IMG/VR virus record: IMGVR_UViG_3300045988_017465
DNA length: 41,918 bases
Direction: 5' to 3' (one strand)
Source: a virus
In this document: positions 7,103 to 41,918 of the stretch, in pieces
Position numbering within the stretch: position 1 is the stretch's first letter
Layout: the number at the start of each line of letters is the position of its first letter
Notes under the pieces: generated by a model
The model's input: only the letters and a program-made list of their open reading frames with translations
Told to the model about the DNA's origin: nothing
The model's database searches: none
Made by a program: the position numbers and the translations under genes

Positions 7103-8317
7103 ATGAAGAGAATCGGGGCGTTGCTGCTTTGTCTGTGTCTGCTGCTGGCAGGCTGTGGCGCCAAAAAAGCGGAGACAATATCCCTGGTTGCGGGAGTACA
7201 GGGGCAATACGGCGAGCCGTTTACCATAAACAAAGGCACGGAATTTGAGGAAAATTATTTCATTTATCGTGTTCCGGCTGGAACATATACGGTGACAAAC
7301 GTTGGAAAGTACCTAAACCAATTCACCGTTTTAGGCGAAACTGTATACACCACTGATGCCGGATGGGAAGAGCTATCCGATGTGTACTATGTCAAGGCAC
7401 TAAAGCCTGGTGAATCAGATACAGTAACTATCGAAGATGGGCAAATAATCGAAATTCACGAGCCAGGGGAGTTCGAACTGGAAAAAGTTAAATCTGGACA
7501 TGGGACTGAAAAGACGGTGAAAACTGTTCCCCCAACAACGAAGGTAGAAACAACGGTGAATCCGAACACGGCAATTTTTGAAGCGGCAAAAACCGAGATT
7601 GAAAACCGCTTGGGTTCGAATTTTTGCTATTACAATGTGTCCTACGATGACAATATGTTTTGCGTTTCGGTATCTATGGAAGGAATAGAAGAAATTGTAA
7701 CCCAAGCGTTGGAACAGGGTGTTTCTTCTGATTCCAAAGAATGGGGATCAATCAGAAATTCCACAATCACAGGGCATGATCTGGTGAAAAAGATTCTGAC
7801 GGAAGCCGGGGCGGATTTGTCGGATGTGCAAATCAGCTTTGATTTGGTCAGTGACGTGGACAATGAAGTTGTCTATGTATCCGCCGTAGACGGCACTATC
7901 TATTATGATGTCCTGGAAATGGCGGAACAGATGAAGGAAGCCGGAGTTGCAGAAACAACGCCTATGCAGAAAGAAGATGCAAAATCTTTGGCGATTATCG
8001 TCAAAGGTATAATGCTGAAGAATCATAGCGATATCAATGTGGATGTCGAGGGGAATACACTGATTGCGTCGTTCACCTATCAAGGCCTTGGGCAGGTAGT
8101 TCCGTATCTGGCTGATGGAAACAAAGAACTTGTTGACAATTGGGGGAATCTGGTTACAGCATCCGAAAAAGAATGCCAATCAATATGTGAACTTGTACAG
8201 ACTTGTGGATATGATTGTACCGTAAAAATGATTATTCTGAACGATTTAGATACTAGCAAATCATTGATGGAATTTACGGATGGGAAAATCACTTACAATG
8301 TTGCGGACGAGAAATAA
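7103..8317 (+). CDS. Prophage-encoded lipoprotein
   Basis: 404 aa. Signal peptide plus lipobox: MKRIGALLLCLCLLLAGC|GAKK. SD AGAGGGA. No family recognised for the mature part. Confidence 0.8.
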   Translation: MKRIGALLLCLCLLLAGCGAKKAETISLVAGVQGQYGEPFTINKGTEFEENYFIYRVPAGTYTVTNVGKYLNQFTVLGETVYTTDAGWEELSDVYYVKALKPGESDTVTIEDGQIIEIHEPGEFELEKVKSGHGTEKTVKTVPPTTKVETTVNPNTAIFEAAKTEIENRLGSNFCYYNVSYDDNMFCVSVSMEGIEEIVTQALEQGVSSDSKEWGSIRNSTITGHDLVKKILTEAGADLSDVQISFDLVSDVDNEVVYVSAVDGTIYYDVLEMAEQMKEAGVAETTPMQKEDAKSLAIIVKGIMLKNHSDINVDVEGNTLIASFTYQGLGQVVPYLADGNKELVDNWGNLVTASEKECQSICELVQTCGYDCTVKMIILNDLDTSKSLMEFTDGKITYNVADEK

Positions 8318-8557: not shown

Positions 8558-9211
8558 TTGAAAATATCGCAGGAAGGGAAAAATTCGCAAGAGACGAGAG
8601 AATTTGTCGAAAGCTTATGGCAGGCCAGGCTAGACAAAAAGAGAACCTATCAGGAAATTTCCGACGAAACACAAATACCGTATCACACGGTGTGCCGCTT
8701 CTTCCAGGGCACGATGGACGATCCCGGAATTTACATCGTGAACGAACTGGCACATGCGTTAGACGTGCCCATGTTTGCGCCGGATGCGCCGGACACCACC
8801 GCAGAGGTGGAGCGACTGGAATCCGAGCTGTGCCACAAAGACGAACTTCTTGCCGAAAAAGATAGGGCAATTGGAAGGCTGGTAGACCGCAGTCGGATCA
8901 TGCTAACCGGCATCGAATTCAGGGAAAACCGCCTGGCAGAAAAAGAAAACGAATTGCACACCGTGCAGGACGGGAGCAAGCCTCTAGTTTACGGCCTTCT
9001 GGGTCTGTGCGTGATGCTGGCTGCCGTCCTGCTCGTTTATATGATCCTTGACGCAAGAGACCCGTATCAGGGATTGATACGGGTAGGGGAAGGGAGAGTA
9101 TCCGTTGTCGTTTTGCTGGGCATTCTCGGCGTGACCGTTGCGGTGCTTGTGCTTATTTATATGGCCGGTGCACATCGCTTTGTGCATCGGAAGAATAAGG
9201 GGGAATCCTGA
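8558..9211 (+). CDS. Membrane-anchored XRE-type HTH protein (HTH, coiled coil, two transmembrane helices)
   Basis: TTG start with an AGGGGTGA SD. HTH: RTYQEISDETQIPYHTVCRFFQGT. Coiled coil: EVERLESELCHKDELLAEKDRAIGRL. Transmembrane helices: PLVYGLLGLCVMLAAVLLVYMIL and VSVVVLLGILGVTVAVLVLIYMAG. The stop overlaps the int ATG. Confidence 0.7.
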   Translation: MKISQEGKNSQETREFVESLWQARLDKKRTYQEISDETQIPYHTVCRFFQGTMDDPGIYIVNELAHALDVPMFAPDAPDTTAEVERLESELCHKDELLAEKDRAIGRLVDRSRIMLTGIEFRENRLAEKENELHTVQDGSKPLVYGLLGLCVMLAAVLLVYMILDARDPYQGLIRVGEGRVSVVVLLGILGVTVAVLVLIYMAGAHRFVHRKNKGES

Positions 9212-10389
9212 TGCCACGAAAAGCCGCCTCCGGCTCCGGCACGATCCGGAAAAAGGAGATTGTCAGAAACGGCACGAAATACACCTATTGGGAAGGCCGC
9301 TACATGGCAGGACGTGACCCCTTAACCGGGAAGCCCGTCCGTAAATCCATCACCGGGAAAACCCAGAAGGAAGTCGCCCAGAAGCTCCGGGAAGTGGTTT
9401 CATCCGGTGCCGACAGCGCATACAATCCAAATAGCGGTATCACCGTGGAAAAATGGCTGAACCTGTGGATAACCGACTACGCCGGGGAGAAGAAGGAAAC
9501 CACCATAGCCAATTACAAAACCTGGATAGACTACCGTATTGCCCCGGCTTTGGGAAAAATAAAGCTGGAGCATTTGCAGACCAATGATATTCAGAGATTC
9601 TATAACGGCCTGCGGGGCGATATTTCCGCAAAAACCATCCGCAATATCCACGGTATTCTGCATAGCGCATTGGCACAGGCTGTGCGCAGCCGGATCATAC
9701 CATTTAATCCGGCGGACGCTTGCGCCCTGCCAAGGGTGGAAAAGCGGGAGATAACTCCGGTTGTAGACGATGATCTCACGGCCTTTTTGTCCGCTATCAA
9801 GGAAAGCAAATACGAAGATGTCTACTTGGTTGACGTATTCACGGGGATGCGTCAAGGGGAAATTTTGGGCCTGACGTGGGATTGTGTAGACTTTAAGCGG
9901 AACCGGCTATGTGTAAATAAGCAGCTGGCCAGGGTCAAGCAGGGGGGAGGAACCCATGTGCTCCGACCCACAAAAAAAGACAACATCCGCTATATTGCGA
10001 TTCCCGCCATGATTGCCGCCCGGCTGAAAACGATCCAGCGGCACCAACAGACCCTCGCTGCCGAAGACCCGTGCACATACCGAAACGATATGAATCTTGT
10101 GTTTACGGACGATACCGGGAAGCACCTGGTTGGTATTACGGTTTACAAAAACTTAAAAAAAATATTTGCCAAAATCGGAATACCGGAATCCAGGTTTCAT
10201 GATCTGCGCCACTCCTACGCCGTTGCACTTTTGGAGGCCGGGGTTGACGTGAAAACGCTGCAAACCAATCTAGGCCACTCGAACATTTCGACCACCCTTG
10301 ACGTATATGCCCACGTTACCCAAAAGCTAAAAGCAGACAGTGCGGACAAGCTGGAAAAATTCGTTTCCGGGCTGCAAAAACAGCGCTAA
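9211..10389 (+). CDS. int: Tyrosine recombinase / phage integrase
   Basis: 392 aa. SAM-like N-terminal domain and catalytic motifs TGMRQGE, HDLRHSYA and LGHSNISTTLDVYAH. Confidence 0.92.
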   Translation: MPRKAASGSGTIRKKEIVRNGTKYTYWEGRYMAGRDPLTGKPVRKSITGKTQKEVAQKLREVVSSGADSAYNPNSGITVEKWLNLWITDYAGEKKETTIANYKTWIDYRIAPALGKIKLEHLQTNDIQRFYNGLRGDISAKTIRNIHGILHSALAQAVRSRIIPFNPADACALPRVEKREITPVVDDDLTAFLSAIKESKYEDVYLVDVFTGMRQGEILGLTWDCVDFKRNRLCVNKQLARVKQGGGTHVLRPTKKDNIRYIAIPAMIAARLKTIQRHQQTLAAEDPCTYRNDMNLVFTDDTGKHLVGITVYKNLKKIFAKIGIPESRFHDLRHSYAVALLEAGVDVKTLQTNLGHSNISTTLDVYAHVTQKLKADSADKLEKFVSGLQKQR

Positions 10390-10705: not shown

Positions 10706-11041
10706 CTAAAATGTGATTAAGTTTTCAGCACGTTGCAGCAAAAGGCGAAGATAGATTGGGCATCCTCTTGATTCGGTACACCAATTTTCGACCGTTCGCT
10801 TCGGAATGCAATACCGTTCTGCGAATGCCGCTTGGCTCAGGCCAGAATGCGCAACAATTTCCCGGACGGTGCGGCTTGCGGCGGCGTAGATACTGCGCAA
10901 TTGATCCAGCCGTTCGGGCGGGATGGGTGCATCCGGCGTGTCGCCCCAAATGGTGGACAATGCAAGGTCTGACACATACGCGTCCGGGTCGCTGTAATTT
11001 GCAACCGCAGACACGCAAAAATAATATTGTTTGGCAGTCAT
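10706..11041 (-). CDS. HTH DNA-binding protein (MqsA/Cro-like C-terminal HTH)
   Basis: 111 aa. The motif SQAAFAERYCIPKRTVENWCTESRGCPIYLRLLLQR is HTH-like. Good SD (GGAAAGGAAAG). It is the last gene before attP. Confidence 0.55.
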   Translation of the reverse strand: MTAKQYYFCVSAVANYSDPDAYVSDLALSTIWGDTPDAPIPPERLDQLRSIYAAASRTVREIVAHSGLSQAAFAERYCIPKRTVENWCTESRGCPIYLRLLLQRAENLITF

Positions 11042-11059: not shown

Positions 11060-11617
11060 TTAATGCCTTTCCTTTTTCCTGCTTTCCCTTAACGCGGAAA
11101 GCCAATTCAGAAATTCATCGTCCGGAATCTGCTGGGCAATGCGGCGCATTTCTTCCGCGGCTTCCCGTGTCTTAAATTCCCCGATAAAGTGCTGATGGCC
11201 GTTTAGAATTTTGTAGGTGAAAAACATTCCCCTAGCCGTTCTTTTTGAAACGCCCGTACGCGAAGAATCGATGATTTTTCCCGCCGCCGTGATCCGCGCA
11301 CTATCGCGCTTCCAGCAGCCACAGCTTTTAGTAGTCCCACCCCTTAGGGACGTTGCTGGTACTAGTACAGTGTTTCCACAGTCGCATTTACAAAGCCAGA
11401 CGACCGATTTTGCACGCTTTACGTCTGTTTCGCAAATTGCGACCAGGCGGCCAAACCGCTGCCCGCTTATGTCCCTATTATCTGGCAGGCGGTTTCTGTG
11501 TATCAGGGCTAGGCGGCACTGTTCGGAACAGGTGCGCCGCACATAATAGGAATCCGGGGCGGTAAATTCCGCCCCGCATATTACGCAAACACGGCGTTTT
11601 TCTTTGCCATTATTCAT
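11060..11617 (-). CDS. Zinc-ribbon plus AP2-like DNA-binding protein
   Basis: 185 aa. CVICG...CSEQC; GQRFGRLVAI...WLCKCDCGNTVLVPATSLRGGTTKSCGC (a common phage motif); then an AP2-like GVSKRTARGMFFTYKILNGHQHFIGEFKTREAAEEMRR. Confidence 0.55.
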   Translation of the reverse strand: MNNGKEKRRVCVICGAEFTAPDSYYVRRTCSEQCRLALIHRNRLPDNRDISGQRFGRLVAICETDVKRAKSVVWLCKCDCGNTVLVPATSLRGGTTKSCGCWKRDSARITAAGKIIDSSRTGVSKRTARGMFFTYKILNGHQHFIGEFKTREAAEEMRRIAQQIPDDEFLNWLSALRESRKKERH

Positions 11618-11921
11618 CTACAACCAGATTCCATTCGTCGCCGTTGTCCCGTTCTTCGTCCGTCAGGGCAACCAGAACTTCGCTATCTTCGCCACGGTTG
11701 GCGGTGTCTACTTCGTTCTGCCACCAGGAAATCAGGTTCTTGACATCTTCGTCGTTGGCCAGAATAGTTGTGCTGCCTTCTTCTGTTCCCTTGCCGAACT
11801 CCCGGGCAAAGCTGCCGTTTTCCAGGTCGTCGAAACAATCGGGTTCATAACCGGCATTCCAGCCGCCGCGCCACAGCTTCAGGGTGATGTTGATAGTCTT
11901 GGTTTCAGTCTTGATAGTCAT
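11610..11921 (-). CDS. Hypothetical acidic protein
   Basis: 103 aa. SD AAAAGGAGA upstream. It is the first gene downstream of the second consensus promoter and overlaps the next gene by 8 nt. Confidence 0.6.
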   Translation of the reverse strand: MTIKTETKTINITLKLWRGGWNAGYEPDCFDDLENGSFAREFGKGTEEGSTTILANDEDVKNLISWWQNEVDTANRGEDSEVLVALTDEERDNGDEWNLVVDE

Positions 11922-11969: not shown

Positions 11970-11998
11970 ATTATACCACTCATTGGGTGGTATGTCAA
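11970..11998 (-). promoter_or_regulatory. Second perfect-consensus promoter TTGACA-17-TATAAT with a palindromic spacer
   Basis: Minus-strand read: TTGACA (11998..11993), TACCACCCAATGAGTGG (17 nt), TATAAT (11975..11970). The dyad is ATACCAC-N7-GTGGTAT. Confidence 0.7.
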
Positions 11999-12030: not shown

Positions 12031-12066
12031 AAAAATTTATCCCCAAGAGGTTGAACCCTTGGGGAT
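12031..12066 (-). terminator. Intrinsic terminator ending the low-complexity operon
   Basis: Minus sense: ATCCCCAAG-(10 nt)-CTTGGGGAT, a 9-bp stem (12039..12066), followed by AAATTTTT. It begins 6 nt after the stop of the 12072 gene. Confidence 0.6.
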
Positions 12067-12071
12067 AATAG

Positions 12072-12398
12072 TTAATCTTCTAACCGCCGCATAATTGCGG
12101 CGTATTCCTTGGGATAAAGTGCCCGAACACAATCCATGTGTTCATCCAGTACATCCAAAAGCCGTGGCATTCCAGCCTTCCTTGCGGCTCTGACAAACTC
12201 GCTTCCTCCGGTGTCTACCGGCTCCGGCGACATGGAATACATTTGCACAGGGGCAGGATTAGCGGGGCGGGAGCTTTCCGGTAACAGGTGATCCAGGATG
12301 GTGTAGCACGCTGCCATAAGCTGGCAGGCGGAAGCGGTAGGCTTTCGCATTGCCCGACACTCTTCGATTGTTTCCAGCAAGTCCCGCTCTGTTAACAT
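12072..12398 (-). CDS. Hypothetical protein H (last gene of the moron unit)
   Basis: ATG at 12398 follows GGAGGATTAAAA. 108 aa: MLTERDLLETIEECRAMRKPTASACQLMAACYTILDHL.... There are 2 nt between it and the upstream stop. Confidence 0.7.
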   Translation of the reverse strand: MLTERDLLETIEECRAMRKPTASACQLMAACYTILDHLLPESSRPANPAPVQMYSMSPEPVDTGGSEFVRAARKAGMPRLLDVLDEHMDCVRALYPKEYAAIMRRLED

Positions 12399-12400
12399 TT

Positions 12401-12784
12401 TTAATCCTCCATGCACCGCAGAGCCTTTTCCAAGGCCTCCCGTGTCCGGCTATCCGGTGCGTCGTCCATCATGCGCCGCAGTTTGTCGGCCATATCATCC
12501 TTAGCATCTGCCCGGCTGTAGCGTCCCATGCTGTCCCGTTTCCGACCCCGGTAGCTGTTGCCACCCCGGTATTCATCCCGGTAGCCATCACGGCCATAAT
12601 TGCCCATAGCGTACCAGTCACCGGCGTTGCTGTACTCTCCGCCCATCATAATCTTGTCCAGATTTTTCAGGGTGTGGGTCAGTTTGTCCACGGTTTCCAG
12701 ATCACCAGCGGATAACTCGCCTTTTTCGGCGATTTCGTCCAGTTCACGGCAAAGAGTATCACGCAATTCGTTCCAATGTTTCAT
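12401..12784 (-). CDS. Hypothetical protein G with a Gly/Tyr/Arg/Asp-rich low-complexity centre
   Basis: 127 aa. SD GGAGGTGAAAA. Helical ends (MKHWNELRDTLCRELDEIAEKGELSAGDLETVDKLTHTLKNLDKI and ...TREALEKALRCMED) flank GGEYSNAGDWYAMGNYGRDGYRDEYRGGNSYRGRKRDSMGRYSR. Confidence 0.75.
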   Translation of the reverse strand: MKHWNELRDTLCRELDEIAEKGELSAGDLETVDKLTHTLKNLDKIMMGGEYSNAGDWYAMGNYGRDGYRDEYRGGNSYRGRKRDSMGRYSRADAKDDMADKLRRMMDDAPDSRTREALEKALRCMED

Positions 12785-12800
12785 CGTGTTTTCACCTCCA

Positions 12801-13235
12801 TCACGCCACGCGTTCGATCATAAGGTTTGCGTTCGCAACATTGATTGCCTGGGTGGATATGTTGCGCACAGACAGGCTGACACAGCAGCCACGGGGTACA
12901 TCCACAAAGGCAGACGATACCACGTTGAATGCGTTCTCAACAGCCGCAGGGGTCACGGTTGCCGTTGTAGTGGGCAAAGCCTCACCGCCCAGCGCCAAGG
13001 CTACACTGATAGCCCCGACAGTACCGCCAGTTGGGATTGAAATGTTGCCGACAAACAGCACCTTATATCTTGCAATAGATGCACAGCCGTTGCAAATGCC
13101 CCGTAGCGTCACCAGCCCGGCCCCGTCACGGTGAACAACATACCCCCGGTTACACCGAACCGGCGTGTCGGTAAAAAGCACGTTCTGTCCGGCGGGAACC
13201 GTCTGGACAGTGTTTGCAGTAAGTTCAACCGCCAT
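12801..13235 (-). CDS. Hypothetical protein F, BclA C-terminal / C1q-TNF-like jelly-roll pattern (inferred)
   Basis: 144 aa. SD AAAGGAGGG. Pattern: V.AGQNVLF...G.V..R..G..L.G.......YKV.F.GNI..P.GG..GAISVALALGGE.L...........N...S....VP.GC...SVRN.S.Q.I.V.NANL.IERVA. Six Cys. Confidence 0.7.
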   Translation of the reverse strand: MAVELTANTVQTVPAGQNVLFTDTPVRCNRGYVVHRDGAGLVTLRGICNGCASIARYKVLFVGNISIPTGGTVGAISVALALGGEALPTTTATVTPAAVENAFNVVSSAFVDVPRGCCVSLSVRNISTQAINVANANLMIERVA

Positions 13236-13238
13236 GGT

Positions 13239-13457
13239 TTAGCCCTCCTTTGTCGGTGCTGGGTGGCTGTGACCAAGGCACAGGCCGGACAGGCAGCCGT
13301 CCATAAGATTTTTGACCATATCCGCTTTGCTATCGGTCAGGCCTTCCACGTCCTTCACCAAGCCACAATAATCCCGTAGCTCGGTGATGCTGAGTTTTGC
13401 CAGATCGATTTTCCCGATGTGGTCAATCAGATTGGCTTTGATCTCTGCAATGCCCAT
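13239..13457 (-). CDS. Hypothetical protein E (72 aa)
   Basis: ATG at 13457 follows AAGGAGGTCGGTAAA. Sequence: MGIAEIKANLIDHIGKIDLAKLSITELRDYCGLVKDVEGLTDSKADMVKNLMDGCLSGLCLGHSHPAPTKEG. The track ORF (13239..13709) is over-extended into the upstream gene. Confidence 0.65.
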   Translation of the reverse strand: MGIAEIKANLIDHIGKIDLAKLSITELRDYCGLVKDVEGLTDSKADMVKNLMDGCLSGLCLGHSHPAPTKEG

Positions 13458-13470
13458 TTTACCGACCTCC

Positions 13471-14265
13471 TTATGCCACGTTCCCGCAGCCGCAGCCGTA
13501 GCCGTTACCGCAGCAGTTGGGGTTCGGAACGACATAAGCCGGTCTTGCAGGGGGATTGTAATAGGCGAACTGATTTTCGACGTAGCCCTTAATGGTAAGG
13601 TTCTGGGCATTCTGGCTCGCCGCCAACTGTGCCATGAAAAGCTGCTGATTCTGGTCAGCAATTTTCTGGTCTTTCGCCGCCAACTCCTGTGCAGTAAGCC
13701 GCTGGTCAATGGAGCGGAAGCCGCAGTTCATAGCGTCGATGATATCCCTGGTGGTGTTCTGGACGGTGTTCCGGGTTTCGCAACTCTGGGTCGCCATGTT
13801 GTAGTTTACACCCTGGATTGCCTCCCGGTTCTCGCAGCAGCACTGCTGCTGTGCCATCTGCATCTGGAAAAGCTGCTGCATCAAAGCCGCCTGCTGGTTG
13901 CACCGGGACAGCTCCGCCGCCTGGAAACCATTGCTGAGATTCTGGTTCACGTTTGCAAACCCATTCAGCATACCGGTGTTCATGGCATAGAAGCCATCGC
14001 AAACGCCGTTGTTTACGCTGTCGATTTTTCGCTCAATGTTGGAAAAATCGGAAGCGAGGACATAGCCATCCACAACGCCAGCACCGTTTCCACCGCCGAA
14101 GCCGCCGCCCCAGCCGTTGCCGCCCCAACCGAACATGCCGAAGATCAAGAAAACGATGATCCACGTTGCCCAGTCGCCGCCCCAGCCCATGCCGTTATTG
14201 TAGCCGCTACCGCCCTCGGTGCAAGCCCTGATATCGGCAGGGGAGAGATCATTAGAAATACTCAT
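13471..14265 (-). CDS. Hypothetical protein D: Gly/Trp-rich membrane segment, Q/N-rich Cys-containing core, coiled coil, Cys-Gly tail
   Basis: 264 aa. SD TAAGGAGG. Segments: GGSGYNNGMGWGGDWATWIIVFLIFGMFGWGGNGWGGGFGGGNGAG; QQCCCENREAIQGVNYNMATQSCETRN; AKDQKIADQNQQLFMAQLAASQNAQN; C-terminus NPNCCGNGYGCGCGNVA. Confidence 0.8.
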   Translation of the reverse strand: MSISNDLSPADIRACTEGGSGYNNGMGWGGDWATWIIVFLIFGMFGWGGNGWGGGFGGGNGAGVVDGYVLASDFSNIERKIDSVNNGVCDGFYAMNTGMLNGFANVNQNLSNGFQAAELSRCNQQAALMQQLFQMQMAQQQCCCENREAIQGVNYNMATQSCETRNTVQNTTRDIIDAMNCGFRSIDQRLTAQELAAKDQKIADQNQQLFMAQLAASQNAQNLTIKGYVENQFAYYNPPARPAYVVPNPNCCGNGYGCGCGNVA

Positions 14266-14295
14266 GTTTTTTGTTTTCCTCCTTATAAGAAAAAT

Positions 14296-14322
14296 ATTAT
14301 AACAGCGGTTTTACCGCCTGTT
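14296..14322 (-). promoter_or_regulatory. Hairpin plus TATAAT between genes C and D (possible internal attenuator or promoter)
   Basis: Minus sense: GTAACA, 17 nt, TATAAT (14301..14296). The spacer contains the hairpin AACAGGCGGT-AAA-ACCGCTGTT (14301..14322), which overlaps the stop of gene C and is followed by ATATTTTTCTT. Confidence 0.3.
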
Positions 14323-14520
14323 ACCGAAACCAAACATCCCACGGAACTGATCAAATTGTCCTTGCATTTGCTGTGCCATTTGCTGTGCTTGGTTAAGCTG
14401 CTGCTGACTGACCCGTCCGCTCTGCATCAACTGGTTAAGCATCTGCTGCGGATTCTGCCCCTGCATTTGCCGCATAAATTGCGGGAACTGCGTCATCATC
14501 TGCATAGGATTAGGCATCAT
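14311..14520 (-). CDS. Hypothetical protein C, Gln/Met-rich (69 aa)
   Basis: MMPNPMQMMTQFPQFMRQMQGQNPQQMLNQLMQSGRVSQQQLNQAQQMAQQMQGQFDQFRGMFGFGNRR. By my count 21 Q and 12 M. SD GGAGGGAAAG. It overlaps gene B by 11 nt. Confidence 0.7.
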   Translation of the reverse strand: MMPNPMQMMTQFPQFMRQMQGQNPQQMLNQLMQSGRVSQQQLNQAQQMAQQMQGQFDQFRGMFGFGNRR

Positions 14521-14917
14521 TGTACTTTCCCTCCGTCATCTGTTTAATTTTTTCTTCCACAGCGGAAAGCCGCTGCTCAAATTCCGAACTTACCGCTTCC
14601 TTGCCTGTGCTGGTATCCCGAATCTTGTATTCGTAGGCAACAATCGGCATAGGCCGCCCGTTCATGTCGGCTCGTTTTTCGTAAAACACCGGCTTATTGC
14701 TGTCCCAGAGCCGGACAAAGCCATTGGCCGCTACCAAAAACGCCTCTGCTGCTGATTCCGACGCAACCCAAATCCGGTCATCCTGTGGGCTTTGCGGTGG
14801 TGCGGCGTTCTGCCCTATGGGCATCTGCTGGGCAGGCGGCTGCATCTGCGGGAAATAGTTCTGCGGATAGTACCCGCCGGGTTGATAGATTGGCTGCATA
14901 TACGGATTTGCCATCAT
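14510..14917 (-). CDS. Hypothetical protein B: P/Q/Y-rich N-terminus plus a globular C-terminal domain
   Basis: 135 aa. N-terminus MMANPYMQPIYQPGGYYPQNYFPQMQPPAQQMPIGQNAAPPQSPQ, then IWVASESAAEAFLVAANGFVRLWDSNKPVFYEKRADMNGRPMPIVAYEY. ATGA overlap with gene A. Confidence 0.75.
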   Translation of the reverse strand: MMANPYMQPIYQPGGYYPQNYFPQMQPPAQQMPIGQNAAPPQSPQDDRIWVASESAAEAFLVAANGFVRLWDSNKPVFYEKRADMNGRPMPIVAYEYKIRDTSTGKEAVSSEFEQRLSAVEEKIKQMTEGKYNDA

Positions 14918-15300
14918 TCACGCCTCCAAAAATAGATTGGGTTTTCGTCCATCGAATTCCAGGTGTCATACAATACGCCGTCAATCACGGTGACAACGTG
15001 GTTTTTCAGGGCAACGACATAGGTTCCAGTCGGGTACTCCTGGATAAAATCACCCACGGTGTAGCAGTCCGGACATTCTGCCGGAATCGATGCCCGGCGA
15101 AAGCCATGTTTCCGGAGGACTGCACCCCATACGTTGTTTGCACTGGGCATATCACATTGTGATATGCCTTCGATTGCTAGCATGACATATGCCTGATACC
15201 AGTCAATATCTAACGCCTTCGCAATCGCTCTTACAGCACAATCGCCGACTTTCGCCGTCCGGGGGTTCGGGTTGAAACTTCGAAAAATGCCCATAGGCAT
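14914..15300 (-). CDS. Hypothetical protein A, papain-fold cysteine-peptidase-like (inferred)
   Basis: ATG at 15300 follows AAAGGGG. 128 aa. Candidate catalytic residues are Cys in VGDCAVRAIAKAL, His in KNHVVTVIDG and Asp in YDTW. The track N-terminal extension runs through the terminator hairpin. Confidence 0.65.
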   Translation of the reverse strand: MPMGIFRSFNPNPRTAKVGDCAVRAIAKALDIDWYQAYVMLAIEGISQCDMPSANNVWGAVLRKHGFRRASIPAECPDCYTVGDFIQEYPTGTYVVALKNHVVTVIDGVLYDTWNSMDENPIYFWRRE

Positions 15301-15324
15301 CGCCCCTTTCTGCTTATAGCATAG

Positions 15325-15364
15325 CAAAAAACCAGGCGAACGAATCATCATCGTTTCGCCTGGT
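15325..15364 (-). terminator. Intrinsic terminator between the sigma-like gene and the low-complexity operon
   Basis: Minus sense: ACCAGGCGAAACGA-TGATGAT-TCGTTCGCCTGGT, a 13-bp stem with one bulge, followed by TTTTTT. It starts 28 nt after the stop at 15392. Confidence 0.7.
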
Positions 15365-15391
15365 TTTCGTCAGAAAATCGTCACTTTTTCG

Positions 15392-15628
15392 TCAAATAAT
15401 CAGGTCGTCCGGGAGCGTGGCACTGTACTTCTTGACTGCATCATATTTCCGCTGCAATCGTCGCACGACCCTGGTTATTGTGGCTTGGGACACACTGTAT
15501 TTTTGTGATTGCCAGTATTGGCAGTGCCCGGCGGCACGGGTGGTTAAGACATCCTTTTCCAGCGGCGTAAGACACGCCAGCCTGTCAAACTCGTCAATGA
15601 CCACCCGATTTAACCCGGGCTTGTCCAC
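15392..15628 (-). CDS. Small sigma-70 region 4 / LuxR-type HTH regulator
   Basis: 78 aa with a GTG start. LTPLEKDVLTTRAAGHCQYWQSQKYSVSQATITRVVRRLQRKY resembles LTPREREVL...S..EIA..L.IS..TV....I..KL. Confidence 0.5.
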   Translation of the reverse strand: MDKPGLNRVVIDEFDRLACLTPLEKDVLTTRAAGHCQYWQSQKYSVSQATITRVVRRLQRKYDAVKKYSATLPDDLII

Positions 15629-17093: not shown

Positions 17094-18677
17094 TTAGGTT
17101 GCGGTCATGGATGCAATGGCATCCTCAAGATTTTTGATTACCATGTTTACGTCTCTTTGATAGCTCAGTTTTAACCCTGCGCCGTCACTGGCCTGCACCA
17201 CAGTGTCAGGGGCGTAAGCGGTGAGGGCTTTGTAGGCGGCGAGTTCGGTAGCGGTGAGCGGGGTTTCGATGGGGGTGGCGAGGCCGTAGAATAAAATGTA
17301 TTCTCCTTCTTCTGGGTTTTTGGCGTCAATGGGAATAAAAATCTGTACATTGGTTTTGTCTACATAAAAGTGCGGGGTATCTTTGTTAAACGAAACAAGA
17401 AATGGCGATTTATTGCATAGGGCTTCTGTTTTGTAATCGCGACCAAGTATTGGCAACCGAATCGAAAGTCGTTTTGTTACCGCAAACTTAGCGATATCCG
17501 TAACGTTACAGGTTGACAAGTCTATAGCGTTCACCATCTGAACCTTCACCCCTCTCCCCAAGTCCACCTCATCGCACATCCACCGTTGTCCGTTTTCGTC
17601 CGTGTAGTTGCCGCCAGAGACGACAGGGATGCCTGGTAAGCCGTTGGGAGTGGGGAGCGTGATAGTTTGCGTTTTTCCGTTCCCATCGTTCAATGTTACC
17701 GTCACGCTCCCGCCGTCACCAGTGCTCTCGATCGGCACAGGGCTGTCCGGAGTCGGTGTGCCGTCCTGCGCACTTTTGCCGTACACGGTCAGTCCGCACA
17801 GCGGCGCAGAGAAAGTATCGTCAACGGAGATAGGGTTGCCTGTCTCAGTGCCCACAAGGACATTCTGTCGGGCTTTATCTGCCGCATTAATGTTAGACCG
17901 GGCTTGCTCCTGCTGGGAATCAGTAAGGTTCTGCTCGGTGTACAGCACTGCCGTTTCCGCCGCTTTCTGGGCTTTCTGGGCGGCAGCTTGGGCGGCCGTT
18001 GCGTTTTTCTGTGCGTCTTCTGCGGCTTTCTTGGCTGCTGCCGCTGCCGCATCGGCGGCGGTGGTGTCACCGGCGGGGCCAACTGGGCCAGTCAACCCCC
18101 GGGGGCCAGTTTGGCCTACCTCGCCCCGGTCTCCCTTGTCGCCCTTGTCACCTTTTTCCCCTCGGAAGTCCCCGGAAGCAATTCCGTCTTCCAACTTTTT
18201 CAGGGACTTGGCGGCATTTTCAGCGGATATTCCCGCCTGGGTGGCGCTGGCTTCCGAACTCCGGGCGGCTTCCGTGGCACTTGCCGCCGCATCCTTCGCC
18301 GCCTGGGCATCCGCAGCCACGGCCTGGGTGTAGGGCTTCAGTGGCTCGTCGGGTACAGCTCCGGGGGTAGTCAGTGCCCGGATGGTGTTGGTCTGGTAGG
18401 TAACGGATTTGACGACCGCACCGTCTGCGCCCAACCATTGCAGTTCGGCCTGACCCCGTCCGGGATAGGCCGTATCCGTGGATGATACCACCCAGACAAT
18501 ACCGCCGTCGGCCTCCACTGCCGGAACAGGGTATGGCTTCTGGTCATTCGCCCGCTGATGCAGCAGCAGGATACTCCCCACGCCAGCCCGGATATTGGGC
18601 AGCGTCACCCGTACAGCCTGGTTTTCACCCTCTTTGCCTAGAGCAATGACACCAGCGTTAGGCACTACATCAATCAT
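17094..18677 (-). CDS. Tail fibre / receptor-binding protein with a collagen-like G-X-Y stretch and an Ala-rich coiled coil
   Basis: ATG at 18677 follows AAAAGGAGGAAG. GEKGDKGDKGDRGEVGQTGPRGLTGPVGPAGD maps to about 18065..18170. The N-terminus VPNAGVIALGKEGENQAVRVTLP is BppU-like. Confidence 0.8.
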   Translation of the reverse strand: MIDVVPNAGVIALGKEGENQAVRVTLPNIRAGVGSILLLHQRANDQKPYPVPAVEADGGIVWVVSSTDTAYPGRGQAELQWLGADGAVVKSVTYQTNTIRALTTPGAVPDEPLKPYTQAVAADAQAAKDAAASATEAARSSEASATQAGISAENAAKSLKKLEDGIASGDFRGEKGDKGDKGDRGEVGQTGPRGLTGPVGPAGDTTAADAAAAAAKKAAEDAQKNATAAQAAAQKAQKAAETAVLYTEQNLTDSQQEQARSNINAADKARQNVLVGTETGNPISVDDTFSAPLCGLTVYGKSAQDGTPTPDSPVPIESTGDGGSVTVTLNDGNGKTQTITLPTPNGLPGIPVVSGGNYTDENGQRWMCDEVDLGRGVKVQMVNAIDLSTCNVTDIAKFAVTKRLSIRLPILGRDYKTEALCNKSPFLVSFNKDTPHFYVDKTNVQIFIPIDAKNPEEGEYILFYGLATPIETPLTATELAAYKALTAYAPDTVVQASDGAGLKLSYQRDVNMVIKNLEDAIASMTAT

Positions 18678-18787
18678 CGGTATACTTCCTCCTTTTCCAG
18701 CATCAATCCGATAAACCCGATGGCCAGCCCCACCAGCATAGGCAGGGCTAGAACCATCAACCACAGCAGCTTAGCCAGCGTTCTCAT
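18674..18787 (-). CDS. 37-aa transmembrane micro-protein (not in the ORF track)
   Basis: Own translation: MRTLAKLLWLMVLALPMLVGLAIGFIGLMLEKEEVYR. ATGA overlaps at both ends, with the 18784 stop and the 18677 start. Confidence 0.5.
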   Translation of the reverse strand: MRTLAKLLWLMVLALPMLVGLAIGFIGLMLEKEEVYR

Positions 18788-21231: not shown

Positions 21232-22282
21232 TTCTCAAAATCACCTCATCAATTGCCGTTAAAGTCGGTTCGCCTAGAACAATGCTGGTGGTTTCCCCAT
21301 TGCTGTCCAAAGTGTATTTGTACCCAGTTACCTGCGCCTGGAATGCCACGCCGAACCGGTTAGAAACGCAAGATACCGTGTCACCCAAGTCATATTTCGC
21401 CCCGAATTCATCGGGATCAATTGTCACCGAAAAGCTGGTACGTTTCAGGTATTTCCCCAGGGCAAGGGACGCTTGTTCCTTTGCCCGTTTTTCCACGGCT
21501 TTTTGGGATTCCTTTTCTTCGGCAATAACCGTGTTGCTGCACCACAGCTCCCGTCGCTCGTCGCCTTCTGCCTCGCCGACCGAAGTCTGATATTCTTTAT
21601 CGTTATACTTGTACATGATGTAGGCAGCATTTTTGAAGGTGGATTCATCCTCGTTGATGATTAAGTCTGTACAAGTGCCCTGCTCCTCCACAAACGCTAC
21701 AGCGTGTATCCCCTCAGTTCGGACAATCCCCTTGAAAATCTCAAACGTCCATTTTAAGGCTTTGCTGTCCCAAATCATTCTCCGCCCAAGTTTTCCGTAG
21801 GCCAGAACCTCCGTGACCTGATCCAGCAATTGCCCGTCGGAAATAACGCTTTCGTCATCATCTTCGGTTTCCGTGTCATCTTCCTGGAACGTCTCCGTCA
21901 GACCCTTGATGGGTGCTAGGTCAATCCGGCTCAGTCCACGCAGATTGCCGGAAATCAGACTATAGGTGTCTTCCTCGATGGTTACGATTTTTTTCTTGTT
22001 CGCAACGCACCGCTTATTCAGCAGCCATTCAGCCGTATAGCCGTTTGCGGTAATCTGCTGTTTCGTGGTGTCGCTTTTCACGTTTACCAGCACATAGGTG
22101 GTTCCCCGCACGGTGTTGTAAACGATATTTCCCGGTTTTAGGGATGCAATGGCATAATCGTCAAGTGGTTCTATGATGGATATCTTGCCGACATCGTTGT
22201 ATGCTTCCTCCATCGATATTGCGCTTGCCGCATACAGTCCATACCTGGTAGAAAAATCTGCCGGGTAAATTTCCAGGCTCAC
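21221..22282 (-). CDS. Siphovirus Gp37-like tail-tip / baseplate protein
   Basis: 353 aa. GTG start follows GGGGGTGG. Its position after Dit and its N-terminal pattern (IYPADFSTRYGLYAASAISMEEAYNDVGKISI) resemble the ReqiPepy6 Gp37-like family from memory. Confidence 0.55.
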   Translation of the reverse strand: MSLEIYPADFSTRYGLYAASAISMEEAYNDVGKISIIEPLDDYAIASLKPGNIVYNTVRGTTYVLVNVKSDTTKQQITANGYTAEWLLNKRCVANKKKIVTIEEDTYSLISGNLRGLSRIDLAPIKGLTETFQEDDTETEDDDESVISDGQLLDQVTEVLAYGKLGRRMIWDSKALKWTFEIFKGIVRTEGIHAVAFVEEQGTCTDLIINEDESTFKNAAYIMYKYNDKEYQTSVGEAEGDERRELWCSNTVIAEEKESQKAVEKRAKEQASLALGKYLKRTSFSVTIDPDEFGAKYDLGDTVSCVSNRFGVAFQAQVTGYKYTLDSNGETTSIVLGEPTLTAIDEVILRNGN

Positions 22283-23145
22283 AGCGCCACCCCCGTTTTC
22301 TCCACGGCATAATCTATGGATACCTGTAGATTGTTTTTTCCGCTAGTTGCTTCCGGCTTGATGGAGTTATCGCCCACCCTTAGCCGCCAGAACTTGGAGC
22401 CAAGGTCAAGAGCACCTCGGCATTCCCCGTCTACGGATGACGTGACGTATACCCGATCATGGGTGATTTCGACCACAAGCCGCTCACCGGCAACCATGCT
22501 TTTGTTCACCAGCAAATAGTTGTTTGTCCGTGCGTCGATGATTTGCGGATTTTCCACAACATCCAGGGCGGTAAAAGTAACCGTATACGGGATTTCCAAC
22601 TGCCCGGAGTTGTGGATAGAAATAAATTTCTTCACAACAACCTCGCCGAAACGATACGGGCGGCTTATATTCCACGGGAACTTAAAACGCTTTTCTACAC
22701 CGCTCAGGGCGGCATAAGCATTCTCGGATTTCATCCAATAGGGGTAGGGGGCAAGCAGCGAGAATTGGAATTTTGCCATTGCAGCCTTCGCCTCAATGGT
22801 CGGCGTTTCGGTAGGGCGGCACTCCAAATAGTAGTCATTACAAAACAGCTTCCCGCCCAAATCTGGGCGAACCACTTCCAGCAGACGCTCCTTTTTTTCT
22901 GCCTGTGCGCCTCCAACAATAATTCCGGAGATGTTTACCGGGCGGCTCTGCACATTGGCAGACCGGATTGTGGTTCCGGTCTGCCCGATTCCCTGCGCCT
23001 CGCTGATGGATACGGATACCGCATCAATACCGGTTGGCTTACTGATAAGATACCCGCCGTCATAGTCCAGCGTCACCTTTTCGCCATCACTATTTTCATA
23101 GACAAATGTCTTCGATAAATTGTTGTAACCCACTAGATAGCCCAC
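22279..23145 (-). CDS. Distal tail protein (Dit, Sipho_tail family)
   Basis: 288 aa, immediately after the tape measure gene. The start may be the GTG at 23133, which has better SD spacing, rather than 23145. Confidence 0.7.
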   Translation of the reverse strand: MGYLVGYNNLSKTFVYENSDGEKVTLDYDGGYLISKPTGIDAVSVSISEAQGIGQTGTTIRSANVQSRPVNISGIIVGGAQAEKKERLLEVVRPDLGGKLFCNDYYLECRPTETPTIEAKAAMAKFQFSLLAPYPYWMKSENAYAALSGVEKRFKFPWNISRPYRFGEVVVKKFISIHNSGQLEIPYTVTFTALDVVENPQIIDARTNNYLLVNKSMVAGERLVVEITHDRVYVTSSVDGECRGALDLGSKFWRLRVGDNSIKPEATSGKNNLQVSIDYAVEKTGVAL

Positions 23146-25682: not shown

Positions 25683-25708
25683 AACGGCAATAAACAGGTC
25701 TAAAAGGT

Positions 25709-26418
25709 CTATGTGCCGTCACCTCCCATCCGTTCCAGCTTTGTACTGATATCTGCAATAATTTCCTCGCCGCCTCTGTTTTCCTCCGGCTTTGGCGGGT
25801 CAATGTAATCTATATACCGATGCCCTATGTATTTACCGCCAAAAGCTTTTGCTACGGTTTCGGTCAGCGTCATAATGGCATCGGATATATAGACACGGTA
25901 CGCTTTTTCGTCCTGCTGCTGGTTCCAGTGCTCTGAAATCATCCGCAGCATGGCAGGGAAGGGAAGTTTATCCCAAAACAGGGGATTAACCGCACCCAGA
26001 GCAAGAGCGTACCCACTTACGCCAACGCCCTGAGCGAAACGAAAAAACTCATCACGTCATCCCGTGTCAAAATCTTGTTGAACGTGACAACGGCATTCGG
26101 AACCTTTTCGCCCGCCTTCTCGACCATCCAGAAAGAATCCGTAAAATCGGCGGTTTCCTTCGGGTGCTCCAGGCACGCCTTTCTCGCCATCTCCAGGATG
26201 TATTTTTTGTTTTTGTCCCGCTTGCGCTTTGCCACTTCCGCACATTTTGCCCGGAACTGTTCGTCCGTTTCGCCCTCTTCACGGACTACAGGTGGGATTT
26301 CGTCCGCCGGGTCGTTGTCCACCTTTATAAGGGCGGAAAAAGTCTCAATTTTTCCCACAAGGGCAAAAGTTGCCGGGAGCAGCTGCTCGTTCGGCAGGTC
26401 GAAAATGAACTTTGCCAT
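25709..26418 (-). CDS. Tail assembly chaperone G-T fusion produced by a -1 programmed frameshift
   Basis: The -1 frame after TTTTTTC reads FFRFAQGVGVSGYALALGAVNPLFWDKLPFPA and runs without a stop into the track ORF 25709..25951 (MLRMISEHWNQQQDEK...). The frame arithmetic was checked. Confidence 0.75.
26017..26418 (-). CDS. Tail assembly chaperone G
   Basis: 133 aa between the major tail protein and the tape measure. An acidic, helical protein. Confidence 0.75.
   Translation of the reverse strand: MAKFIFDLPNEQLLPATFALVGKIETFSALIKVDNDPADEIPPVVREEGETDEQFRAKCAEVAKRKRDKNKKYILEMARKACLEHPKETADFTDSFWMVEKAGEKVPNAVVTFNKILTRDDVMSFFVSLRALA
26041..26047 (-). promoter_or_regulatory. Slippery heptamer U UUU UUC for the G/GT -1 frameshift
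   Basis: Minus-strand zero-frame codons are AGT TTT TTC, eight codons before the G stop. Confidence 0.75.
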
Positions 26419-26428
26419 ATTGTCCTCC

Positions 26429-27001
26429 TTATGCGGCGGTAATATCCTGATTGACGTAGAACTCCATGGGGCACTCCGTCACATTGCTGATGGAAGCATG
26501 TCCCTGAAGCTCCACAGTAACCTGGCCTTTCCCGTTTTTGGTGGTTTGCAGGGAGAAGCCAGCGGAAGACAGCACGTTTTTCAGGCAAATAGCCGCCATC
26601 CCCTTGTCTCCCATATCTCCAACCCACCAGACTGTGTCGGTAAAATCGGTCAGTTCCAAGGTGTCCTTCGGGGTAATCTTGTTTCCGGTTACGGTGGCGG
26701 GGCCAATAGACAGTTTCACGCCGTTTGCAGTCATGGTCACGGCGGTAAAGCTCATCTTGCATTCCCAACCGTCCAGCTGCTTCAGTTCCTTGGTGTTGTT
26801 GGGGACATTATCGATATCCTCGCCATCATCGGTATAGGTGGCAACACAGCTAGCCTGGATACCGCCGGTGGTCGCAAAAAGGATATCTGTATCCTGCGGT
26901 TTTGCGGGCTTGTCAGGGTTAAAATTGCTCAGGATCATGCCAGCCCCACGGGGGATGCTTTTGAAAGCGTCAGCCGCAATCTGGGTAAACATCTTTGCCA
27001 A
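26429..27001 (-). CDS. Major tail protein
   Basis: 190 aa. TTG start follows AAGGAGG. Its position and beta-rich sequence fit the phi13/TP901-type major tail pattern. Confidence 0.75.
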   Translation of the reverse strand: MAKMFTQIAADAFKSIPRGAGMILSNFNPDKPAKPQDTDILFATTGGIQASCVATYTDDGEDIDNVPNNTKELKQLDGWECKMSFTAVTMTANGVKLSIGPATVTGNKITPKDTLELTDFTDTVWWVGDMGDKGMAAICLKNVLSSAGFSLQTTKNGKGQVTVELQGHASISNVTECPMEFYVNQDITAA

Positions 27002-41603: not shown

Positions 41604-41918
41604 TTTTCCCCATCCTCCGTATTGTCGTCAATTGGCGTGGTATCAATCCGGGTCTCTGCCAGCTGGGCGGCCAGTAGATACTCCTTGGCGTTGATGTTTT
41701 CACCGTGCGTTTCTTTCACTTTTTCTCTAAATTTGGCCAGAGTGCCATTAAAGCATCCAACAGTAGCAAATATACTGCCTTCCTTGTCCCTGGTGAAAGT
41801 GATTGAATCATCCCTGGAACCGATCGGGGCAATGACAATATAGTGCTTATTGCCGTAGATTTCGGCATTGCCGTAGACCCAGGAATTGCCGGAGACCCTG
41901 GCATCGCCGGAGACCCTG
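41600..41918 (-). CDS. Hexapeptide-repeat protein, 3' part (continues from 324..1 across the junction)
   Basis: The frame enters from the right edge with no start codon. It reads ...[105 protein letters not shown], with stop TGA at 41602..41600. Confidence 0.8.
   Translation of the reverse strand, partial: RVSGDARVSGNSWVYGNAEIYGNKHYIVIAPIGSRDDSITFTRDKEGSIFATVGCFNGTLAKFREKVKETHGENINAKEYLLAAQLAETRIDTTPIDDNTEDGEK
41855..41918 (-). repeat. Continuation of the 18-bp tandem array (3.5 units)
   Basis: Units at 41855, 41873 and 41891, plus a partial unit at 41909. Bases 41891..41918 are identical to 1..28. Confidence 0.9.

Follow-up and report, generated by a model that had tools for sequence, protein, structure and literature searches.

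The DNA analysed here is a viral sequence of 41,918 nucleotides (nt) from IMG/VR (record IMGVR_UViG_3300045988_017465; below, at its full length, the window), and this report concerns eight small minus-strand genes, A to H, which lie between two intrinsic terminators at positions 12,031 to 15,364. We have found that the unit is, on good support, a conserved, mobile, terminator-bracketed accessory cassette that is not specific to spores. Its carriers number in the thousands and are tailed phages that infect Clostridia of the gut and rumen (Oscillospiraceae, Lachnospiraceae and their relatives). Literature searches found no description of such a cassette, which appears to be undescribed, and we rate the unit as lying outside the known systems, one of its members having a known fold in a new setting, another being a probable Cys-His-Asp enzyme and five being orphans. 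An earlier note, made from the letters of the window alone, had singled out these genes as a moron-like insert and had suggested, among other ideas, that their products might assemble on the surface of spores.

Gene content and conservation

The genes run from 15300 down to 12072, and the coordinates, starts, Shine-Dalgarno (SD) sites, overlaps and gaps that the earlier note had given for these tightly packed genes were all reproduced. They are listed here in the order A to H, with lengths in amino acids (aa), the matching PHROG family and the median ratio of nonsynonymous to synonymous substitution (dN/dS).

14914-15300, minus strand: gene A, 128 aa; SD AAAGGGG; phrog_3754 at 1.6e-33; dN/dS 0.06
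14510-14917, minus strand: gene B, 135 aa; phrog_21718 at 3e-11; dN/dS 0.10
14311-14520, minus strand: gene C, 69 aa; phrog_22984 at 1e-19; dN/dS 0.03
13471-14265, minus strand: gene D, 264 aa; SD TAAGGAGG; phrog_16490 at 3e-43; dN/dS 0.09
13239-13457, minus strand: gene E, 72 aa; facultative; dN/dS 0.26 from 4 pairs
12801-13235, minus strand: gene F, 144 aa; stand-alone TNF/C1q-like jelly roll; phrog_20016 at 4e-53
12401-12784, minus strand: gene G, 127 aa; phrog_28802 at 2e-6; dN/dS 0.06
12072-12398, minus strand: gene H, 108 aa; in 62 of 90 surveyed loci; dN/dS 0.16

The spacing between neighbours ranges from -11 to 45 nt, with a 4-nt ATGA overlap of A and B, an overlap of 11 nt between B and C, and a gap of 45 nt between C and D. 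When the genes were compared with homologues at 70-97% nucleotide identity, purifying selection was seen in all eight, the median dN/dS extending from 0.03 for C to 0.26 for E. The eight genes are real and selected, and the pattern that they form goes far past what chance would give.

Relatives were collected with iterative hidden Markov models (HMMs) over 237 fetched loci, and 90 non-redundant loci with enough flanking sequence were kept. D and F were the anchor families of this survey, and their presence in all 90 loci is therefore by construction. The gene order A-B-C-D-(E)-F-G-(H) was essentially invariant across these loci, down to about 30% identity; G was present in 84 of them, B in 83, A and C in 81 each, H in 62 and E in 39, and two (pattern '<sig>DF', sig being the gene that precedes the unit in the window) had no member besides D and F. 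The same fixed synteny was found in 80 contigs from metagenome-assembled genomes (MAGs) or genomes and in one cultured phage. Co-conservation, which the earlier note had proposed to survey for all of A to H, thus holds for A, B, C, D, F, G and H and not for E; since E is poorly conserved, the conserved unit consists of seven genes plus a facultative one.

D alone matched more than 600 stretches in IMG/VR, and when clustered at 90% identity D, F and A each gave at least about 7,700-8,000 clusters (at least 7,717 for D, which forms 1,829 at 50% identity). Nearly all of the D, F and A matches listed were unnamed or called "hypothetical protein" and none had a Pfam domain, and one F match among those listed bears an evidently wrong name. 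The statement that no product belongs to a characterised family was borne out in Pfam, NCBIfam, PADLOC and the PDB. Scans of all eight proteins against the first three gave nothing meaningful, no PADLOC defence model scoring better than E 0.016, while sequence searches of the PDB, single-sequence or profile, gave no match for F, A, D, B or G, and a PHROGs scan of A to H returned unknown-function families only.

Decayed copies of the unit were also observed. D is split into two open reading frames in loci L165 (6831-7988) and L205 (7310-7981), and B to D are deleted in L147 (7793-8360).

A mobile and dispensable insert

After the tail genes, the minus strand of the window carries in order the tail fibre, a lysin, an XhlA-like gene, a holin, sig and then the unit. 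The lysis cassette that had been proposed upstream of the unit was identified in all its parts: the lysin has PG_binding_1 and Peptidase_M15_3 domains (family-library scan), the holin matches Phage_holin_1 (E 5e-29), and the XhlA-like protein adjoins it.

The accessory character of the unit was assessed by sampling phages through the holin gene and not through the cassette. Among 32 loci so sampled that had at least 5 kb of downstream sequence, 10 carried the cassette, 10 carried sig with other cargo and 12 carried neither. The ten cassette-less sig loci keep lysin, holin and sig and have different cargo before the integrase, and sister phages whose holin and sig are 80-100% identical bear other cargo in the slot. 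The alternative cargo (L250, 7623-8768; L263, 7639-8660; and, in the same slot, L251 and L264) encodes a Gly-rich hydrophobic protein with a coiled coil (150-205 aa), a protein of about 115 aa and one of 102 aa; no family matches were obtained, the 102-aa protein giving a weak, sub-threshold rubrerythrin match. That the cargo of L250 and L263 might be a diverged D or G was considered and rejected, the hhalign probability being at most 7%.

The usual site of the cassette is between the lysis genes and attP/integrase. In L231 (5723-9092) it lies between the capsid/connector and tail genes and is accompanied by an XhlA-like gene and sig, in L165 (5782-8869) it lies between tail-fibre genes, and in L149 (4046-8795) it occupies the opposite strand and converges on the late operon and lysin gene. 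Together these data show the unit to be a horizontally mobile accessory cassette, insulated from the late/lysis operon by a strong terminator, dispensable and swappable for other cargo. They fit the moron architecture that had been attributed to the unit, which behaves as a terminator-insulated, dispensable insert present in some and absent from other close phages. Like the morons of lambdoid phages, the unit is insulated by terminators, comes and goes among near-identical phages, and is found at varied backbone positions, usually between lysis genes and attP; it differs from them in having seven or eight genes instead of one or two, in being conserved across host families and in being linked to a late-operon regulator. 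Because of this regulator, and because one carrier grows lytically, the cassette may not be a conversion function expressed in the lysogen.

Terminators and a candidate late regulator

The elements that flank or interrupt the unit are the following (HTH, helix-turn-helix; dG, folding free energy in kcal/mol).

15392..15628, minus strand: sig, 78-aa HTH protein resembling sigma-70 region 4; last gene before the unit
15345..15394, minus strand: five hexamers at 11-nt spacing, TGACGA (three copies), AGGCGA and TGATGA
15325..15364, minus strand: upstream intrinsic terminator, stem CCAGGCGAAACGA / TCGTTCGCCTGG, then T6
15313..15321, minus strand: predicted extended -10-like element TGCTATAAG, directly past the T-run and before the SD and gene A
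14296..14324, minus strand: hairpin between C and D, dG -12.2, z -3.4; overlaps a promoter-like GTAACA-17-TATAAT with TG
12031..12068, minus strand: downstream intrinsic terminator, 13-bp stem, then a T-run

The terminators proposed on both sides of the unit proved to be strong hairpins, and for neither did any of 200 shuffled sequences fold as well. The upstream hairpin (15363-15332, followed by the T-run) has a dG of -24.6 kcal/mol and a z of -6.8, and the downstream hairpin (12068-12037) a dG of -20.2 kcal/mol and a z of -4.5. In 63 of 155 relatives a terminator-like site comes after the last gene, whereas 12 of 150 random segments had such a site, and hairpins of different sequence stand at the position of the upstream terminator in other lineages. 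As regards the insulation of the unit, both terminators are strong and the promoter evidence consists of the -10-like match; comparable TGn-plus-(-10)-like elements lie past the T-run in L001, L140, L158, L148, L201 and the cultured Butyrivibrio phage Ceridwen.

We regard sig as a candidate regulator of the cargo slot. Its relatives in L069 and L231 match PHROG sigma-factor families (phrog_3512 at 1.5e-5, phrog_36 and phrog_351). The three TGACGA copies lie at 15394-15389, 15383-15378 and 15372-15367, with the stop codon of sig inside the first of them, whereas AGGCGA (15361-15356) is in the 5' arm of the hairpin and TGATGA (15350-15345) in its loop. The exact pair TGACGA-N5-TGACGA occurs nowhere else in the window, and the repeat marks no other promoter of the window. 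In 87 distinct segments that follow sig genes, at least two phased copies were present in 76, as against 30% of controls, at least three copies in 29, as against 2 of 300 controls, and a hairpin of -14 kcal/mol or stronger in 85. Inside the hairpins, 31% of the in-phase hexamers matched the repeat at four or more of six positions, the out-of-phase background being 4.5%. The repeated hexamer resembles a -35 hexamer and varies with the sig lineage (TGACGA, TGATAG, TGATGG, and TGCACRTAA in Ceridwen), as does the sequence of the hairpin.

The control element occupies 15313-15628 in the window, 7480-7640 in L250, 7480-7660 in L263 and 22260-22490 in Ceridwen (L236). Since the repeats and hairpin after sig are retained in the cassette-less sister phages L250 and L263, the element belongs to the slot and not to this particular cargo, and since sig also accompanies other cargo, it would regulate the slot and not this cassette specifically. 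Two readings of its action are open. The sig product might bind nascent RNA and block the terminator, in which case it would be a timer coupling cargo expression to the accumulation of late proteins, or it might bind DNA and activate the -10-like promoter, by analogy with lambda CII. CII acts at TTGC-N6-TTGC, and the antiterminators TRAP and HutP bind phased RNA triplets. As in these systems, the putative regulator is a small protein, and its candidate sites are direct repeats phased at about one helical turn, which lie just upstream of, and overlap, a terminator and a promoter without a -35 element. The system differs in the resemblance of sig to sigma-70 region 4, in the -35-like character of the repeat and in the two repeats inside the hairpin, and the putative target of sig may be DNA or RNA.

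The hairpin between C and D was considered as a conserved internal terminator and rejected, as it is found in 7 of 96 loci. The region 14263-14324 also gave a sub-threshold Rfam match to caiA (26.9 bits against a gathering score of 55.5, E 0.17); no RNA family of Rfam reached its gathering score.

A jelly-roll protein and a putative membrane anchor

It was suggested in the earlier note that F might be a BclA-C/C1q-like beta-sandwich, and its predicted structure agrees with this. The AlphaFold2 (AF2) model, built from an alignment of 40 sequences, has a mean predicted local distance difference test (pLDDT) of 87 and a predicted template-modelling score (pTM) of 0.81. When the model was compared with the PDB by Foldseek, the top match was Bacillus anthracis BxpB (8d02; E 2.4e-7, template-modelling score (TM) 0.76), followed by ExsF (9h3d), F-BclA (9h38), ExsFA (7r1m) and the C-terminal domain of BclA (1wck), and after these exosporium proteins by TNF ligands and some knobs of phage fibres. 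The same fold recurs in many phage proteins of 130-145 aa that stand alone. F is the most conserved member of the unit, with a mean column identity of 64% and an invariant VPRGCC motif. The Pfam family BclA_C (PF18573) is matched weakly by 2 of 13 F relatives (best E 7e-4), and the window F has no match to it at E<=1.

Like BxpB/ExsFA (ExsF) and the C-terminal domain of BclA, F is a stand-alone TNF/C1q-like jelly roll of about 145 aa (TM 0.65-0.76); it is similar in size to BxpB and, as far as its sequence allows prediction, would also be made in the cytoplasm of a cell that will lyse. It differs from the exosporium proteins in sequence, with identities of 10-18%. The unit as a whole differs from the exosporium system in having no collagen-like partner, exosporium-leader motif or ExsY/CotY lattice proteins, and in being phage-encoded, including in a phage of a non-spore-former, and a trimeric state and peptide docking of F are suggested by analogy with that system.

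D has 12 Cys, some of them clustered at the C-terminus, and its Q/N-rich coiled-coil region includes a CCC motif that is invariant. The Gly/Trp-rich transmembrane segment that had been ascribed to it is present as a Gly/Trp-flanked hydrophobic stretch at residues 33-51, but this stretch is moderately hydrophobic (maximum Kyte-Doolittle value over 19 residues, 1.35), and a transmembrane helix at this place is probable but not certain. It is the sole strongly placed hydrophobic segment of the unit, no product having a hydrophobic N-terminal signal. The Pro-rich tail of D contains residues that are invariant or nearly so in alignments (P238, P242, V246, P249 and C252). Among the matches listed, members of the D family have lengths of 109-367 aa, mostly about 240-300 aa, with no large fusions. 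Two other ideas on D were rejected: a double-glycine leader cut by a C39-like A, since most D relatives lack the motif, which is moreover out of register, and a YjcZ-type sporulation protein or heterocycloanthracin-like precursor, D having zero NCBIfam matches. The other genes of the unit gave no enzyme-family match in Pfam and NCBIfam. The compositions noted earlier hold for D (12 Cys) and for C (30% Gln and 17% Met), whereas F has 5 Cys and not 6.

A probable enzyme and the low-complexity proteins

In protein A, the residues C21, H101 and D112 are invariant in 41 sequences, and there is an invariant CPxC motif at residues 76-79. The AF2 model (pLDDT 93) has a helix at 21-29 and strands at 101-106 and 109-112, which place Cys21 at the N-terminus of a helix and His101 and Asp112 on the following strands, as in the papain-like (clan CA) and NlpC/P60 hydrolases. 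The best Foldseek match in the PDB was Josephin-2 (E 0.03, probability 0.75, TM 0.41), which is not significant; other weak fold matches, all papain-like, were an NlpC/P60 endopeptidase, staphopain and Tae4. A further differs from the papain-like hydrolases in having no Pfam match and in its extra invariant CPxC, and its sequence had no match in Pfam or the PDB. Thus, of the proposal that A is a papain-like Cys/His/Asp protein, the arrangement of residues and the topology stood, whereas the fold matches are weak and not significant; judged from the model, A is probably a Cys-His-Asp enzyme with papain-like topology. Genes similar to A stand alone in the early regions of Tsamsa-like Bacillus phages and occur also in Geobacillus phage GBK2, Lak megaphages and Pseudomonas phages, and A may therefore have a role that is independent of the other proteins.

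B, C, G and H have conserved motifs within their biased regions, and no relatives of known function were detected for them. B, which has no Pfam or PDB match, shows in its alignment a P/Q/Y/M-rich N-terminus, a conserved globular core with the pattern IWV..E.A....V....V.LWD....V.Y.K..D..G.P, and a C-terminal helix. The Gln- and Met-rich C is always directly upstream of D. The Gln-rich B, C and D resemble transglutaminase substrates, by analogy with the transglutaminase Tgl and its Gln-rich substrate GerQ. In G, a low-complexity centre rich in G, Y, S, R and D lies between helical ends and holds the conserved motif RRDSMGRYSR or HYVRGHYSRD; no PDB match was obtained. H is apparently helical with a variable linker, as judged from its alignment, and E is sometimes located after G. 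In a lineage of about 53 kb (L330, 11752-12213; also L329 and L331) the position of H is taken by a 153-aa protein with the Pfam domain DUF7841, the N-terminus of which resembles H while the remainder differs.

Carriers and the spore question

The host labels of the carriers are mostly Oscillospiraceae (Dysosmobacter, Oscillibacter, Lawsonibacter, Subdoligranulum), Lachnospiraceae, Acutalibacteraceae and Ruminococcus, with some Selenomonadaceae; these labels are the titles of MAGs found with the F profile among genome contigs and are hence noisy, bin-based host assignment being unreliable. The cultured carrier, Ceridwen (MN882553.2), has a complete cassette of A, B, C, D, F, G and H at 22484-26447, in the layout lysin, small membrane protein, sig-like gene, terminator, A-B-C-D-F, an HNH-like gene, G and H. 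Its host is Butyrivibrio fibrisolvens DSM 3071, and no integrase is annotated in its record. Ceridwen has been seen in the lytic cycle only and was judged probably virulent (PMC7372960), and Butyrivibrio is a non-spore-forming genus (PMC6249431).

The idea that the unit is a spore-surface module was not supported by the analysis. It is weakened because a complete cassette is carried by Ceridwen, a lytically grown phage whose host belongs to a non-spore-forming genus. Every locus inspected was a phage or prophage and never a chromosomal sporulation locus, and Pfam and NCBIfam gave, among A to H, no coat or exosporium lattice protein of the ExsY/CotY/CsxA/CdeC types and no match to collagen-like BclA or to the exosporium leader TIGR03720. 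The Spo0A effector-domain homologue that had been reported for the same phage was not found by a motif scan of the window, nor was Spo0A_C found among the ten window proteins scanned against Pfam, a whole-window HMM test not having been made.

What the cassette might do

The reading that we tentatively prefer, at somewhat less than even likelihood, is that the cassette is a late-expressed, self-regulated accessory module in which D carries F trimers and which acts on the envelope of the infected cell or on its remnants. The sig protein, made at the end of the late operon, would bind the phased repeats and either prevent the RNA terminator hairpin from forming or activate the -10-like promoter behind it; in both cases expression of the cassette would begin very late in the lytic cycle, and the quiescent lysogen would show none. 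All products lack a signal peptide and would be made in the cytoplasm, and the hydrophobic Gly/Trp segment of D would keep this protein in or at the membrane. F trimers may then dock on the conserved Pro-rich, Cys-rich C-terminal tail of D; this is proposed by analogy with BxpB and ExsF, the trimers of which bind short Pro-rich leader peptides in their clefts (PMC10470788; PMC12357932), the Pro-rich tail of D being a possible counterpart of these peptides. D and F, the anchor families of the survey, are adjacent. C, which is Met/Gln-rich and encoded directly upstream of D, may chaperone the hydrophobic segment of D, while B, C, G and H would be partners, chaperones or matrix. A might act on a component, or on a target in the host, by processing or cross-linking it. 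The assembly would have its effect at the time of lysis or later, on the envelope of the infected cell or on what is left of it, and would not be specific to spores.

A more far-reaching proposal, which we consider quite unlikely, is that the cassette, once sig has relieved the terminator, builds an exosporium-like, cysteine-stabilised layer in the dying cell. BxpB-type trimers would sit on a hydrophobic coiled-coil anchor and be embedded in a low-complexity matrix, and the layer would coat cell remnants or progeny virions, protecting or clustering them in the gut. If this were true, a principle of spore-surface anchoring would have been reused by viruses of non-sporulating hosts.

Several points weigh against the module that we prefer. 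HMMs found sig beside 39 of the 90 cassettes, and sig is tied to the slot and not specifically to the cassette. The extended -10-like element could give constitutive expression in the lysogen, as in a classical moron. The hydrophobicity of the D segment is moderate, the fold matches of A are not significant, and A may be independent of the other members. What is said here of the timing, of the docking of F on D and of the parts played by A, B, C, G and H is inferred, and the position of the cassette beside head or tail genes in some backbones, together with the occurrence of TNF-like domains in phage fibres, fits a role in the virion equally well.

Such a role would be that of an accessory set: the capsid or tail would be decorated by trimers of F, perhaps joined by B, G and H, the other genes would supply assembly factors, and the particle would gain an optional improvement in its stability or adhesion in the gut. 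Phage fibres and spikes commonly have TNF/C1q-like domains, for example in the central spike knob of phi812 and a short tail-fibre domain of a cyanophage, and there are, in addition to the many stand-alone phage proteins with the fold of F, a weak Hoc-like PHROG match (E 0.022), co-orientation with the late genes in most loci, and the proximity to capsid genes in L231 and to tail-fibre genes in L165. The set is also kept by a lytically growing phage, and its pattern of presence and absence fits decoration proteins, which are typically dispensable. However, a decoration set would not usually comprise seven genes, with a hydrophobic anchor and with a terminator and regulator of its own, the cassette moves among unrelated backbones with different capsid and tail genes, F as the most conserved member is unlike receptor-binding domains, and the tail fibre is unchanged in cassette-less sister phages; we hold this explanation to be unlikely, if worth keeping in mind. 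A similarly low probability is given to a classical lysogenic-conversion moron, expressed from its own promoter in the lysogen and altering the host envelope, as in superinfection exclusion, receptor masking or adhesion. The terminator brackets, the site between lysis genes and attP/integrase in most loci, the extended -10-like element past the upstream terminator, the presence or absence of the unit among near-identical phages and the membrane-anchored appearance of D would all suit such a function. Yet the cassette is complete in Ceridwen, which lacks an annotated integrase and is seen in the lytic cycle only, export signals are lacking in all products but D, the linked regulator gene is part of the late operon, and no PADLOC defence match was obtained.

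That the proteins join the coat or exosporium of lysogen spores we regard as highly improbable. The closest solved folds of F are indeed exosporium BxpB/ExsFA, ExsF and BclA, the abundance of Cys, Q, G, Y and R in the products recalls coat proteins, and many of the candidate hosts are in families that include spore-formers. Against this stand the complete cassette in a phage of non-spore-forming Butyrivibrio, the lack of matches to an ExsY/CotY/CsxA-type lattice protein, collagen-like BclA or TIGR03720, and the phage context of the cassette in every locus inspected, with no Spo0A-like gene found by the scans described above; moreover, Dysosmobacter, Subdoligranulum and the Selenomonadaceae, which appear among the MAG hosts, are not known as typical spore-formers. 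It could also be imagined that B, C and G phase-separate or aggregate in the infected cell, forming a viral factory or a matrix of the occlusion type that D and F would organise. Their composition is extremely biased and yet conserved (the P/Q/Y-rich N-terminus of B, the Gln and Met content of C, the G/Y/S/R/D centre of G), all the genes are under purifying selection, and the products are cytoplasmic. We nevertheless find this very unlikely, as the case is built on composition, conserved motifs in the low-complexity regions such as RRDSMGRYSR suggest specific binding over bulk phase behaviour, and no precedent for condensate formation is known in small siphoviruses.

Implications

The results suggest that a multi-gene unit which is very common in phages of the human and animal gut has gone without a description that we could find. 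Seven families recur in a single order in phages of different host families, which implies that they serve one multi-protein function of importance to the fitness of gut phages; once this function is learnt, thousands of phage genomes could be annotated together. The BxpB-like fold of F raises the testable question of whether the docking of peptides known from spore surfaces is used outside sporulation. In the control element we may have a late-gene switch of a new type, which could also mark cargo slots in these phages. The cultured carrier Ceridwen, growing on B. fibrisolvens DSM 3071, makes the cassette experimentally tractable.

Other features of the window

At about 42 kb, the window represents the complete genome of a temperate phage of siphovirus type, with its packaging, head and tail genes on the minus strand. 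The features that lie outside the unit and its control element are the following.

17094-18764, minus strand: tail-fibre protein; 11 collagen-like GXY triplets at 18063-18161, Pfam Collagen at 1.4e-5
11998..11970, minus strand: sigma-70 promoter of perfect consensus, TTGACA-17-TATAAT with TG, directly past the downstream terminator of the unit
11610-11921, minus strand: gene of 103 aa with no named family; first of three behind this promoter
11060-11617, minus strand: HNH-endonuclease-like gene of 185 aa; phrog_374 at 1e-19
10706-11041, minus strand: HTH protein gene; third gene facing this promoter
9211-10389, plus strand: putative integrase gene, from position and relatives

We regard the gene at 9211-10389 as a putative integrase because of where it lies and of what its relatives are. 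In related loci this place is occupied by proteins that its HMM matches, and the Pfam domain Phage_integrase on which the call draws was found in the position-equivalent gene of the 53-kb lineage. The GXY run of the tail fibre is the sole one in the window, and related fibres with collagen matches are present in the 53-kb lineage (L329, L330). A collagen-like tail fibre that co-varies with the cassette was considered and rejected, as the fibre is also found in cassette-less relatives.

An 18-bp tandem repeat, GGAGACCCTGGCATCGCC, is present at both ends of the window, with 9.8 copies at 1-176 and 3.1 copies at 41864-41918. Because the repeat stands at both ends, the window is probably a circular assembly that was opened inside an array of about 13 copies, and the array could encode a hexapeptide repeat. 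The promoter at 11998..11970 was found in a scan of the window for promoters of the sigma-70 type. A relative of the HNH-like gene behind it sits between F and G in the cassette of Ceridwen.

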